From the sequence record MN432485: 51,296 bases of DNA; one strand, 5' to 3'. A model generated the notes under the pieces. It worked only from the letters and a program-made list of their open reading frames with translations. It was not told where the DNA came from and made no database searches. Of the stretch, positions 2,775-5,739 are shown piece by piece. Both the position numbers and the translations under genes were made by a program. Each line of letters opens with the position of its first letter. The first letter of the stretch is position 1. This DNA is from Shigella phage SFP17.

Positions 2775-2802
2775 AAAGGAGGCGTTAAGCCTCCTTTTTG
2801 TT
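2775..2802 (+). terminator. intrinsic terminator (AAAGGAGG-loop-CCTCCTTT + T-run)
   Basis: 8-bp GC-containing stem followed by TTTTTGTTG; boundary between convergent blocks. Confidence 0.7.
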
Positions 2803-3183
2803 GCCTTTGCGGTAGGAAAAGTAAAGCATTGACAAAAGACCACTGAAAATTGCAGCGCAATAGATTATAGGATCGTACCACTTCCTTTGCTCACCCTGCA
2901 CAACCTGGATTTTATCAGCCTTGATGGTGTTTGCCTGAATGGTTGACGTAGTGAAATCCTTCTTGCTGGAAGTGTCCACCTTATCAACCGCAGATTCCTT
3001 TATTGTAGTTTCCTGTTTTGTGCTGGTGTCCTGCTTTGCGGTAACGCCAATGGTCTGCTTTACGTTCTCCGCTCCTGCCTGTGCTGTGATTTCCGGCTTA
3101 CTACCGATTAATCCGGTCAGTGGCGTAACGCTTGAACATCCAGACAAAATAACAGCGATCGCGATTACTGATAACTTTCGCAT
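2785..3183 (-). CDS. unimolecular spanin-like outer-membrane lipoprotein with C-terminal TMD
   Basis: N-terminal lipobox ILSGC, C-terminal hydrophobic helix, RBS AAGGA; immediately downstream of endolysin. Confidence 0.65.
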   Translation of the reverse strand: MRKLSVIAIAVILSGCSSVTPLTGLIGSKPEITAQAGAENVKQTIGVTAKQDTSTKQETTIKESAVDKVDTSSKKDFTTSTIQANTIKADKIQVVQGEQRKWYDPIIYCAAIFSGLLSMLYFSYRKGNKKEA

Positions 3184-3185
3184 AA

Positions 3186-3674
3186 TTACAGATCCTTAAT
3201 GCAATATTTAAATTCCACCGCGCGGCGGTTGCGCAGTCCTTTAGACGTTTCTTTCTTTCCTGTTTTTGGATTGGTGTATTTTGTCCATCGCCATAACTGA
3301 TCGCACGCTTCCATATAACGACCGTTATTAATCAGCTTAAGCATAGTTGAATTTCTAAAAGCACCAGTGCCAGCATTGTATGTGAATGAATACATCGCCG
3401 CGCGCATTGTATCAGGAATGTCAACCTTCACACGTTTATCAACTTCATCCTTTGCGATCTTGATATGCTTTGCCAGTAGAGCATCACACTCTCTCTGTGT
3501 GTACGTTTTACCTGGTATTACGTCAGGTCCAGTTATTCCGGCGCAAACCGTCCATATTCCAGCAATATCTTTGTACGGCTTATATTTTACTCCTTCTATT
3601 TCCTCCAGTAGCGGAGAAGTAAGGGCAAGAGCAACGCCAAAAGCCGCAGCGGTCACTCTTTGTTTTATACTCAT
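3186..3674 (-). CDS. SAR endolysin (T4-type lysozyme, GH24)
   Basis: Catalytic E-8aa-D-5aa-T triad ([16 protein letters not shown]); Gly/Ala-rich weakly hydrophobic N-terminus typical of signal-anchor-release domains; start overlaps holin stop. Confidence 0.85.
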
Positions 3675-3889
3675 TATTTACCTCTGATCTCAATAGCTTT
3701 CTTAATATCACCGCATTCAAGAGCGTCACGTAGCGCCTTACTATCACGCCAACGAAGATAAGCGCCCCACATACCAAATGCAGCCATCAAAACTAAGCTG
3801 GCTATTGCGATAGTTGTTTGACCAGTTACCGCGCCAGTGATTGACGCGCCGCCAGTACCGGAAGTTGCAGCGTTTAAAAAATCTTTCAT
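3674..3889 (-). CDS. holin (71 aa, single TMD; pinholin-like)
   Basis: One strongly hydrophobic segment followed by charged C-terminus; RBS AGGAGA; position directly upstream of endolysin. Confidence 0.7.
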
Positions 3890-3960
3890 GATTAGATCTC
3901 CTGTAGATAAAAGTCAACAATTAATTGTTTGTATCCTAACCATTGAACTCACAAAAAGGA

Positions 3961-3992
3961 ATAAAAAAAGGGCGAAGCAAAATGCCACGCCC
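3961..3992 (-). terminator. intrinsic terminator after phosphoesterase gene
   Basis: GGGCG...CGCCC stem followed on minus strand by a run of T. Confidence 0.6.
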
Positions 3993-4035: not shown

Positions 4036-5151
4036 TCAATCAGCCATTTCTGGATAATGCATAAATCGCCCCACTTCTCCGTATTCTTTATCGTAAACAA
4101 TAACAGCTGCGCGGCGACGAGAACGCCATCCACCGCGCGCAGCATATGCATCTTTTGCCGCCATAGTGCTATGCACTTCAACAATGCCCAGGCTTGTTTC
4201 AGTTACTGTCTGATGATGCCAGTGCCCTACGTGAGCATACATCATTTTTGAATTTCCGAAGTCTTCGCGCCAGTCTGCCGCGCACATCATTAGTAATGTT
4301 TCAGGCTTGCGTATAGTGTGCCCGTGATGATATGCCAGGAATGTTTTGCCATACTGTGTGTGATGAACTACTCGCGGAGAAACATCAACATGCACTCGCG
4401 GCTCATTCTCATATGCTGCCGCCATTGCTGCGCGCAACCAGATCATGCCGCTTTGGTCGTGGTTTCCTTCAATAATCTGAATCTCGACGTTTTTGTGTTT
4501 TGATAACAGCTTTGTGATTGCTCGACGCACTGACCGGATGGCAACATAAACAAGTTTTGCGTATCGACTATCTTGATCTAATACGTGACCGCTTGCAGGT
4601 GTCACCGCTTCCAGTCCGTCGCTGTGAAGCATATCACCACCAATCAGCAAAACAGCTTTTTCACTATCCGGCGCGCACTGGATGGAATAATCAATGAAAT
4701 TATTCATTACGCGCTCTGCTGTTGCTGTATCCCAATTCTCGCCGCATTCATGCTTATGCGCCATTGCGCCCAAGTGCATGTCAAAGATCGGATACAGTGA
4801 TAACGTCTCGCTATAATCCTTTTGTGATTCTGGCTGTGGATCAAGTCGAGGAACTTCTTCGCTAAATGCATCCATAGCGGCCTGCATTAATGCTTCTAAC
4901 TGTTCGCGGTCCTTACTTGTCTTAATCCATGTCATAACCACATTGCCATCTTTATCAATTAGCTTTGATTCTCCAGTAACACCAAAACCAGGTGATCCGA
5001 TGGTTGTAACTTTACCTTGCTTTGCTAATCGTGCCGCGCGTCGCTCAATGCTGCGAACGTTCATACCATACTCATTAGCGATCTGCTTATATGTCTTTCC
5101 CTGCTTGCGCTCATTGATAAATTGTTCATCTGTGATTTTGATTTGCTTCAT
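4036..5151 (-). CDS. calcineurin-like metallophosphoesterase with N-terminal HTH domain (371 aa)
   Basis: HTH-like TYKQIANEYGMNVRSIERRAARLAKQG; phosphoesterase motifs GDMLHSD, GNHD, GHWHH; RBS AAGGAGA; ATG at 5151 (track start 5154 is TTG). Confidence 0.8.
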   Translation of the reverse strand: MKQIKITDEQFINERKQGKTYKQIANEYGMNVRSIERRAARLAKQGKVTTIGSPGFGVTGESKLIDKDGNVVMTWIKTSKDREQLEALMQAAMDAFSEEVPRLDPQPESQKDYSETLSLYPIFDMHLGAMAHKHECGENWDTATAERVMNNFIDYSIQCAPDSEKAVLLIGGDMLHSDGLEAVTPASGHVLDQDSRYAKLVYVAIRSVRRAITKLLSKHKNVEIQIIEGNHDQSGMIWLRAAMAAAYENEPRVHVDVSPRVVHHTQYGKTFLAYHHGHTIRKPETLLMMCAADWREDFGNSKMMYAHVGHWHHQTVTETSLGIVEVHSTMAAKDAYAARGGWRSRRRAAVIVYDKEYGEVGRFMHYPEMAD

Positions 5152-5249
5152 CAAAAATTCTCCTTATCTCATTATAACAACGTATACAATAGAGATCGCC
5201 ATCATAACAGGTAAGGGCAAAAGTAACAAACGCCACATGATAATAATCC

Positions 5250-5693: not shown

Positions 5694-5739
5694 ATTATGC
5701 CCGACACAAGGCCGGGCGTTTTAACAAAAAGTGCTATTT
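5694..5739 (-). promoter_or_regulatory. conserved-motif promoter (motif + 22 nt dyad spacer + CATAAT)
   Basis: AAATAGCACTTTTTGTTAAAAC then GCCCGG...CCGGGC then CATAAT; upstream of 5482-5661. Confidence 0.5.

Follow-up and report, generated by a model that had tools for sequence, protein, structure and literature searches.

A helix-turn-helix domain joined to an Mre11/SbcD-like metallophosphoesterase in the T1-like Shigella phage SFP17

The Shigella phage SFP17 possesses a genuine gene that encodes a helix-turn-helix (HTH) domain joined to a metal-dependent phosphoesterase (MPE) resembling Mre11/SbcD, and we consider it somewhat probable that its product serves as a DNA-tethered, stand-alone nuclease that takes part in the replication or recombination of phage DNA or in degrading that of the host. 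The gene lies within a stretch of 51,296 nucleotides (MN432485; in the following "the window"), which represents a Hanrivervirus (T1-like, Drexlerviridae) and is ~97% identical in DNA sequence to the phages vojen, egaa and pSf-1. Its family, PHROG 704, ranks among the commonest phage protein families that lack an assigned function, and many Klebsiella and E. coli phages used in therapy carry the gene.

Results

The gene and its family

The gene occupies positions 4036-5151 on the minus strand and encodes a complete product of 371 residues followed by a TGA stop codon. The 371-residue open reading frame had already been proposed by an earlier interpretation of this DNA (the sequence-only reading) and is confirmed with all its signals in place, namely an ATG start codon at 5151-5149, the TGA at 4038-4036 and a Shine-Dalgarno sequence, AAGGAG, at 5160-5165 (minus strand), 8 nt 5' of the ATG. 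The product is 100% identical across all 371 residues to damhaus gp33, which is annotated as "putative phosphoesterase" or "DNA repair exonuclease", and it matches PHROG 704 over the full length (E 2.4e-151, residues 5-370 against profile positions 3-389 of 390).

PHROG 704 is present in 2,042 of 50,697 phage records and falls into ~4,600 metagenomic clusters when grouped at 50% identity. It occurs in T1-like, Jersey-like, HK578-like and Chi-like phages and also in phages of Vibrio, Flavobacterium, Rhodobacter and Microcystis. RefSeq lists its members as "DNA repair exonuclease" and "putative phosphoesterase"; the HTH-MPE architecture is hence not new to databases, and the gene has previously been annotated as a phosphoesterase or repair exonuclease. 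As such, the finding is sound yet fairly ordinary, with an architecture that is visible with routine tools and would leave a specialist unsurprised. Literature searches on Drexlerviridae, T1, mEp021, Mre11-like HTH proteins and escaper screens returned nothing specific on the function of PHROG 704.

The N-terminal module

In the AlphaFold2 model (pLDDT 93.3), the protein is divided into an HTH (residues 8-44), a hairpin-helix part (55-99), a linker and the MPE domain (116-371). The HTH-like segment that had been noticed at the N-terminus from the sequence proved to be a folded, positively charged three-helix HTH domain (residues 5-46, with helices 8-16, 21-28 and 32-44; positions 5014-5139, minus strand). 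It superposes on LuxR/GerE-type and resolvase HTHs with 0.9-1.4 Å across 40-44 residues, so that the N-terminus is not a linker. Among 134 divergent homologues with pairwise identities mostly <50%, the HTH region is occupied in 97% of the alignment rows and carries a median net charge of +3 over residues 5-50. The protein itself matches HTH_28 of Pfam below the 25-bit cut-off (E 0.0026, 18.3 bits), and HTH models matched by 119 diverse relatives include HTH_1, HTH_8, Sigma70_r4_2 (1.5e-9) and GerE (2.4e-8). From our point of view, the N-terminal HTH probably binds DNA. A search around the gene for operator-like repeats that could represent HTH sites yielded only short, chance-level matches, and no conserved palindrome was seen in the upstream alignment of relatives.

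The HTH is followed by a family-specific beta-hairpin (56-65 and 71-80) and helix (82-97) at positions 4855-4989 (minus strand), as judged from the secondary structure of the model and from conservation across the 134 sequences, in which G69 and W75 are near-invariant. A variable linker without secondary structure in the model comes next (residues 100-115; positions 4807-4854, minus strand), and its mean column entropy of 3.03 bits is the second highest among five regions. The N-terminal module is present in every sampled member of PHROG 704, and in none of the 134 sequences do fewer than 115 residues stand ahead of MPE motif I.

The metallophosphoesterase domain

The calcineurin-like catalytic domain of Mre11/SbcD/DP1-like type (residues 116-371; positions 4039-4806, minus strand) displays the two-layer beta-sandwich MPE fold and a complete five-motif set of metal ligands (DxH, GD, GNH[DE], H and GHxH). 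The sequence-only reading had called the set complete on the strength of GDMLHSD, GNHD and GHWHH; these three are indeed found at residues 172-178, 229-232 and 309-313, but motifs I (DMH) and IV (HHGH) had been overlooked. On the minus strand, motif I is formed by D124-M-H126 (4774-4782), motif II by G172-D-M-L-H-S-D178 (4618-4638), which has the GDxxH form of Mre11, motif III by G229-N-H-D232 (4456-4467), motif IV by H275-H-G-H278 (4318-4329) and motif V by G309-H-W-H-H313 (4213-4227). The seven metal ligands D124, H126, D173, N230, H231, H276 and H312 are invariant in 134 of 134 relatives, and high conservation is also seen for G172 (99%), H176 (96%), D178 (94%) and H310 (95%). Overall, the MPE domain is far better conserved than the HTH, with a mean column entropy of 2.06 versus 2.81 bits.

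Sequence searches with the single protein remained below threshold for Metallophos PF00149 (E 0.063, 14.2 bits, gathering cut-off 21.5), and 30 of 119 relatives matched this model at E <= 0.01 (best 1.9e-5). Neither the whole protein nor its isolated MPE part found a significant match among PDB sequences, the family profile gave weak matches only, and NCBIfam returned only short motif-level matches. The MPE domain is a divergent branch of the superfamily that has no Pfam model of its own; Pfam is sub-threshold for this protein, whereas both domains are clear from the AlphaFold2 model and from the family. The best Foldseek match is a Mre11 structure of T. maritima (E 4e-8), and hhalign connects the family profile with T4 gp47, a phage Mre11/SbcD, at a probability of 77% (E 2e-5) across motifs I-V, a moderate link in which the gp47 alignment ends at residue 219 of 339.

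Flanking signals

The lysis cassette, with holin (3674-3889), endolysin (3186-3674) and spanin (2785-3183), lies directly after the gene, as the sequence-only reading had stated. Its postulated terminator was also recovered: an intrinsic terminator at 3963-3992 (minus strand), consisting of a hairpin (3992-3970) and a U7 tract (3969-3963), separates the gene from the lysis cassette and folds with -14.6 kcal/mol (z = -2.1). As read from the alignment, JLBYU07 and ElisaCorrea, which represent two related genera, have hairpin-plus-T-tract sequences of other composition at the corresponding position.

The promoter that had been suggested for the gene fared less well. The TATAAT is present at 5171-5176 on the minus strand, within the extended -10-like box TGTTATAAT (5171..5179, minus strand), but TGTTATAAT is not enriched in the window as a recurrent phage promoter motif (16 seen versus 17.5 expected from shuffles) and the -10-like box is only loosely conserved in the upstream alignment of relatives. 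A putative own promoter, based on a single consensus match, is thus no more than plausible. A consensus scan brought up a second promoter-like site, TTGTTA-17-TATGAT with TG, at 5201-5229 (minus strand), which is partly conserved in JLBYU07.

Genomic neighbourhoods

In SFP17, the gene is the last one before the lysis cassette and is preceded on the same strand by a helicase gene, a VRR-NUC gene, a Dam methylase gene and three small ORFs. In mEp013 and in E. coli prophages, a replication initiator gene stands upstream and DnaB directly downstream, and in Salmonella phage KE12 the order is helicase, one further gene, HTH-MPE and primase, and RecE and Erf come slightly later in the same region. 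A podovirus-like contig, L024, carries the gene between endonuclease VII and a PNKP phosphatase, the three being flanked by DNA polymerase A on one side and the portal gene on the other. In AAS23, whose orthologue is 59% identical to the SFP17 protein, a 3'-phosphatase/PNK and a dNMP kinase follow, and the order in IME268 is similar. In many distant phages, the gene is found outside the replication module at the end of a late tail/lysis operon, and the lysis cassette is located within a few genes of it in 10 of ~16 annotated lineages sampled. The lysis-adjacent HTH-MPE genes often overlap the preceding small ORF. The small terminase gene comes directly after HTH-MPE in Dhillonvirus and one gene further in PEAT2.

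Discussion

In the reading that we favour, the basic HTH of the LuxR/GerE or sigma-70 region 4 type, being flexibly linked, would hold the protein on double-stranded DNA, and the phosphodiesterase domain of the Mre11/SbcD/PolD-DP1 type, with a binuclear metal centre (probably Mn2+), would cut or trim DNA. In canonical Mre11/SbcD, DNA binding and specificity come from the capping domain and the Rad50/SbcC ATPase, and we propose that the HTH and hairpin module takes the place of both. The protein most likely acts on DNA during replication or recombination, or breaks down host DNA for nucleotide supply, in a role comparable to that of T4 gp46/47, T7 gp6 or the mycobacteriophage MPE proteins. This reading is favoured by the invariant metal ligands, the Mre11-type motif II, the fold and profile links, the N-terminal HTH and the DNA-metabolism genes that adjoin the gene in several phages. 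A precedent is the phage MPE A10ZJ24 gp48, whose fold neighbours are the same and which breaks down DNA in vitro and, in vivo, the genome of its host (PMC12287305). The DNA-targeted activity proposed by the sequence-only reading is supported, and neither of the two conditions that it had named as refuting applies, the N-terminus being a folded domain and the enzyme differing from PPP-type Ser/Thr phosphatases. Our data establish the architecture, the intact active site, the relationships of the fold, the retention of the fusion throughout the family and the gene neighbourhoods, whereas we infer DNA binding, nuclease chemistry and biological role. Against the reading stand the moderate strength of the T4 gp47 link, the weak similarity to the mycobacteriophage MPE and the late-operon position of the gene in many distant phages. 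A recombination role would be partly redundant, as the phage already encodes a RecE-like exonuclease together with Erf and SSB, as well as the VRR-NUC nuclease (damhaus annotation).

Several other explanations can be imagined, of which a generic Ser/Thr protein phosphatase of the PPP type, similar to lambda NinI, is the least credible and is disfavoured. NinI is a member of the same superfamily, and in lambda its gene also stands immediately before Q and the lysis genes; the PPP signatures GDxHG, GDxVDRG and GNHE are, however, absent from the SFP17 sequence, which has DxH, GDxxH, GNHD, H and GHxH, and the hhalign probability is 0.6% for NinI, i.e. no detectable profile similarity, versus 77% for gp47. 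We further regard it as very improbable that the protein is a transcription regulator that steers late or lysis transcription through its sigma-region-4/LuxR-like HTH, with the MPE as accessory or sensor. Its N-terminal matches to Sigma70_r4_2 and GerE would suit such a function, as would the holin gene directly downstream with a terminator and a promoter-like site in between, and lambda Q takes the same place relative to S-R-Rz. Yet no catalytic residue varies, the MPE is far better conserved than the HTH, and most other phages have the gene after the lysis genes or within the replication module. An activity on small molecules, such as cyclic or linear nucleotide signals or nucleotide-sugar and lipid pyrophosphates, would leave the HTH solely the task of autoregulating the gene. 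Motif II in its GDxxH form and the profile link both point to Mre11/SbcD instead, no conserved operator-like repeat exists near the gene, and autoregulation hardly explains why the HTH is kept in all sampled members of a family of ~4,600 clusters despite very different genomic and promoter contexts, which makes this option distinctly improbable. Two narrower candidates were rejected. A helicase loader, to which the DnaB gene next downstream in mEp013-type prophages had pointed, is at odds with the absence of DnaB from T1-like phages and with the invariant catalytic residues. A packaging cofactor in analogy to the HK97 HNH protein was dropped given that terminase adjacency is confined to Dhillonvirus and, one gene off, PEAT2.

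The remaining alternatives keep the nuclease and differ in its purpose. One could speculate that it targets the host chromosome, silencing host and defence genes and feeding nucleotide salvage, in line with A10ZJ24 gp48, which degrades DNA in vitro as well as the host genome and is required against host defences (PMC12287305). The adjoining 3'-phosphatase/PNK and dNMP kinase genes in AAS23 and IME268, and endonuclease VII and the PNKP phosphatase in L024, would fit such salvage. We nevertheless judge host takeover or counter-defence to be rather unlikely, because hhalign finds only a weak resemblance to the mycobacteriophage MPE (9%, E 0.0037, motifs III-V only), that MPE has no HTH, and the gene sits in the late operon of many phages whereas gp48 is an early gene. 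PADLOC gave no match, which has little bearing on counter-defence since its library consists of defence-system proteins. Alternatively, the nuclease could be co-expressed with the tail and lysis genes for a task in the final phase of infection, where it might trim or clear unpackaged or branched DNA, aid packaging (cf. the HK97 HNH protein) or be carried into the next cell. The vicinity of the lysis cassette in 10 of the ~16 lineages, the nearby small terminase genes of Dhillonvirus and PEAT2 and the detection of the AAS23 orthologue in virion preparations by LC-MS/MS (PMC8004638) argue for this. However, in SFP17 a terminator stands between the gene and the lysis cassette and the genes that precede HTH-MPE on the same strand belong to DNA metabolism, in temperate relatives the gene resides inside the replication module, the single mass-spectrometry detection possibly reflects carry-over, and there is no consistent tie to one packaging type. 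The vicinity of lysis genes is a frequent site for accessory genes, so that the adjacency is perhaps non-functional, and on balance we regard a late-acting or virion-associated nuclease as unlikely.

The detection of the AAS23 orthologue in virions is nonetheless at least as compatible with a late or virion-associated function as with one in replication. A more far-reaching proposal, which we consider doubtful, is that the family constitutes a distinct Rad50-independent class of Mre11-like nucleases that serves a dedicated late or virion-borne DNA-processing step undescribed for siphoviruses. The HTH and hairpin would again replace cap and ATPase, and lysis adjacency and the orthologue detected in virions would reflect a late step, such as the clearing or trimming of DNA at packaging and lysis, or the processing of DNA ends in the next cell.

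If the protein is indeed a DNA-tethered, Rad50-free Mre11-like nuclease, it would provide a simple model for DNA targeting via a fused HTH in an MPE nuclease and would fill a gap in the biology of the T1 family with respect to replication, host-DNA breakdown and possibly transduction frequency.

Comparison with known systems

With Mre11/SbcD, including T4 gp47, the protein shares the calcineurin-like fold and the five metal motifs, among them GNHD and a motif II of GDxxH type, but sequence identity amounts to only 11-19%, without a significant Pfam or PDB sequence match. The capping domain of Mre11/SbcD is absent, as the chain continues for just 59 residues beyond motif V (maximum of 77 among the 134 relatives), and the Rad50-binding helices are likewise missing, the N-terminal HTH and hairpin module being present instead. 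The damhaus annotation contains no Rad50/SbcC/gp46 gene, the larger unannotated proteins being a tail fibre, an SF2 helicase and a DUF3987 helicase. The phosphodiesterase domain is also similar to that of PolD DP1 (14% identity). DP1, the small subunit of archaeal PolD, is a 3'-5' proofreading exonuclease with an N-terminal OB fold, whereas the phage protein has the HTH and a two-stranded hairpin, and neither a DP2 polymerase partner nor any phage DNA polymerase is annotated in damhaus.

Lambda NinI has other motifs and no HTH. According to work reportedly carried out in the Shuman laboratory, the Pseudomonas putida MPE and PdeM are small, Mn-dependent, Rad50-free nucleases whose genes lie beside helicases. 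The similarity to PdeM (TIGR04123) consists of a short motif III match (E 3.8e-4; NCBIfam 19.9 bits against a cut-off of 150), and the P. putida MPE and PdeM, the latter from the ligase-associated repair operon, lack an HTH and have a structural score far below that of Mre11 or DP1.

The MPEs of cluster A mycobacteriophages (Bxb1 gp47 and A10ZJ24 gp48) also stand alone without a Rad50 partner, likewise have Mre11 and DP1 as structural neighbours and have their genes placed amid those for replication. Bxb1 gp47 is needed for DNA replication and shows weak exonuclease activity, and A10ZJ24 gp48 is a DNase (PMC11795197, PMC12287305). These proteins differ from the SFP17 protein in their size of ~255 residues, with motif I at the very N-terminus (from D10) and without the HTH and hairpin module. 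Bxb1 gp47 is in addition the recombination directionality factor of a serine integrase, whereas SFP17 is a lytic phage without such an integrase.

Results

Judged by tblastn and megablast, SFP17 belongs to the genus Hanrivervirus (Drexlerviridae, Tempevirinae; T1-like siphoviruses), and the 4 kb around the gene for the helix-turn-helix (HTH)-metallophosphoesterase (MPE) protein share ~96-97% identity with phages vojen, egaa and pSf-1. The ORF runs on the minus strand from an ATG at 5151, preceded 8 nt upstream by an AAGGAG ribosome-binding site, to a TGA at 4038-4036. Over its 371 aa, the product is 100% identical to damhaus gp33, and the names on record are "putative phosphoesterase" (GenBank) and "DNA repair exonuclease" (RefSeq). 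The TGA is CGA in damhaus (L001:9113-9131), so that the damhaus protein is five residues longer (RTFNY, 376 aa). Both the 371-aa form (a cluster of 136 member sequences, database entry P0009) and the 376-aa form occur in public data; the last C-terminal residues are evidently dispensable. The deposited start of the orthologue JLBYU07_9 (L016:1351-2616) precedes the conserved ATG by 150 nt, overlaps the preceding ORF and was probably mis-called. A 79%-identical protein (P0051) carries the label "Streptococcus phage MBBL140", and 20 records with Campylobacter jejuni as host match the present T1-like DNA by megablast; such labels seem suspicious in an enterobacterial phage lineage, with contamination or mislabelling being possible.

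With the single protein, the Pfam matches to HTH_28 and Metallophos were both sub-threshold, and a sequence search of the PDB gave no match. The AlphaFold2 model, built from 134 sequences that are mostly <50% identical pairwise, is confident (mean pLDDT 93.3) and shows three helices (residues 8-44), a lower-confidence linker, a beta-hairpin (56-65, 71-80) with a helix (82-97), an unstructured linker, and the MPE domain from residue 116 to the C-terminus. The fusion of an N-terminal HTH to the MPE domain, as proposed from sequence alone, is borne out. The N-terminal model superposes on the HTHs of Tn3 resolvase (1.3 Å, 42 residues) and of the LuxR-type response regulators DesR (0.9 Å, 40 residues) and DosR (1.4 Å, 44 residues). 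Among 119 divergent relatives, matches were obtained to HTH_1 (26), HTH_8 (18), HTH_50 (14), Sigma70_r4_2 (11, best 1.5e-9) and GerE (5, best 2.4e-8). In the 134-sequence alignment, the HTH columns are 97% occupied, their median net charge is +3, and every sequence has at least 115 residues before motif I, which makes the fusion ancient and universal in the family.

The three phosphoesterase motifs quoted in the sequence-only reading are all present, and D124-x-H126 and H276 complete the set. D124, H126, D173, N230, H231, H276 and H312 are invariant across this alignment, with H176 of GDxxH (96%) and H310 (95%) nearly so; an active binuclear metal centre is to be expected. The top Foldseek match of the model is a Thermotoga maritima Mre11 structure (E 4e-8), and the family profile aligns with T4 gp47, the phage Mre11/SbcD, over motifs I-V (77% probability, E 2e-5) and weakly with Bxb1 gp47 (9%). 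With the lambda NinI Ser/Thr phosphatase there is no relation (0.6%), which argues against a generic Ser/Thr phosphatase. The gp47 alignment ends at residue 219 of 339; a capping domain is absent, as the chain runs on for just 59 residues beyond motif V (family maximum 77), and the phage encodes nothing resembling Rad50/SbcC as a partner, so that the protein does not belong to Mre11/SbcD proper. The enzyme would work like the Mre11/DP1 type, but it represents a separate family. This is PHROG 704 (full-length match, E 2.4e-151), present in 2,042 of 50,697 phage records from many taxa and comprising 4,649 clusters at 50% identity (E <= 0.001) in a representative library of 1.84 billion proteins, where lengths centre on ~370-420 aa. 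The gene is not new in kind: its family is very common in phages, already annotated and uncharacterised.

As the sequence-only reading held, the gene is situated just upstream of the lysis cassette (holin 3674-3889, endolysin 3186-3674, spanin 2785-3183). Of the transcription signals it proposed, the TATAAT at 5171-5176 (minus) is present within TGTTATAAT, an extended -10 form, and another promoter-like site is found at 5229-5201; the TGTTATAAT motif is not enriched in the window over shuffled sequence, and the -10-like motif is only loosely conserved across three related genera. A promoter of its own is therefore no more than plausible. Support is stronger for the terminator, where a hairpin occupying 3992-3970 runs into U7 (-14.6 kcal/mol), with, from our reading of the alignment, a hairpin-plus-T-tract of different sequence at the same position in two related genera, then a conserved TTGAC box before the holin gene. 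It would insulate the gene from the lysis cassette, which appears to have a separate promoter beyond it. Directly upstream of the holin start is a promoter-like TTGACT-18-AATCAT (3888-3917, minus), whose TTGAC box is kept in JLBYU07 and Sfin-6 and reads TTTAAT in ElisaCorrea. A G+C-rich hairpin of 7 pairs with a weak T tract at 5699-5717 (minus), between two small upstream ORFs (damhaus gp30/gp31 equivalents), may be a partial terminator within the helicase-Dam operon.

Discussion

From our point of view, the protein is on balance best described as a DNA-directed nuclease, and the earlier proposal of an HTH-fused phosphoesterase was essentially right in observation and interpretation. The present analysis shows the domain architecture, the intact active site, the fold neighbours and the gene contexts; from these we infer DNA binding, nuclease chemistry and the biological role as follows. 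The basic HTH would tether the protein onto duplex DNA, and its connection to the remainder looks flexible, given the reduced pLDDT across residues 41-60 and a pTM of 0.50 when the N-terminal part is modelled alone; the conserved hairpin-helix (G69, W75) would probably serve substrate handling or oligomerisation, and the binuclear centre would hydrolyse DNA phosphodiesters, most likely in phage DNA replication/recombination or host-DNA breakdown.

In enterobacterial phages, the gene accompanies DNA-metabolism genes. It comes after helicase, VRR-NUC, Dam and three small ORFs in SFP17, stands between replication initiator and DnaB helicase in mEp013-type temperate phages and E. coli prophages, and is flanked by helicase and primase in Salmonella phage KE12, with RecE and Erf a few genes farther. 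Endonuclease VII and a PNKP-type phosphatase flank it in a podovirus-like contig, where it belongs to the DNA polymerase A-portal segment, which in T7 holds gene 6 exonuclease. It precedes polynucleotide kinase and NTP hydrolase in Webervirus IME268, and 3'-phosphatase/PNK and dNMP kinase in Sauletekiovirus AAS23. A PNKP-type 3'-phosphatase/polynucleotide kinase follows directly in three separate lineages (AAS23 gp38-gp40, L026:15801-18058; the contig, L024:6581-8742; IME268 ORF60-62), with a dNMP kinase or NTPase next in two and endonuclease VII ahead in one, a hint that these genes act in one pathway of DNA-end processing or nucleotide salvage. The PNKP-like HAD phosphatase of damhaus (gp59) sits elsewhere, apart from the gene. 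Damhaus gp24 (L012:18269-20431; roughly 10.8-13 kb in the window), a 720-aa "hypothetical protein" with internal repeats between recombination and primase genes, carries a Peptidase_S74 intramolecular chaperone domain (E 4.5e-13), which makes it a tail fibre or spike encoded outside the main tail gene cluster.

A nuclease with a different task, either in host takeover and counter-defence or acting late or in the virion, is rather unlikely even when both options are taken jointly; the late or virion-associated role is nevertheless a serious alternative. The gene ends the late operon in Rhodobacter phage RcPescado, a Microcystis phage, Dhillonvirus and several metagenomic phage/prophage contigs, directly after endolysin and probable spanin genes and often with overlapping stop/start codons. 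At most a few genes separate it from the lysis cassette in ~10 of 16 annotated lineages, which could reflect function or the usual build-up of accessory genes at that boundary. Such proximity is far commoner than for a random position (L003, L004, L007, L014, L015, L022, L023 and two more places), and at these loci the gene often overlaps the preceding small ORF. AAS23 gp38, a 59%-identical orthologue in a related Drexlerviridae phage, was found by LC-MS/MS in virion preparations (PMC8004638, section 3.3), which could mean virion association or simple carry-over.

In the literature, we found no study of the HTH-MPE family. The closest experimental precedents are mycobacteriophage MPEs, which are HTH-less; among them, A10ZJ24 gp48, expressed early, is a phosphodiesterase and DNase that breaks down the host genome and is required against host defences (PMC12287305).
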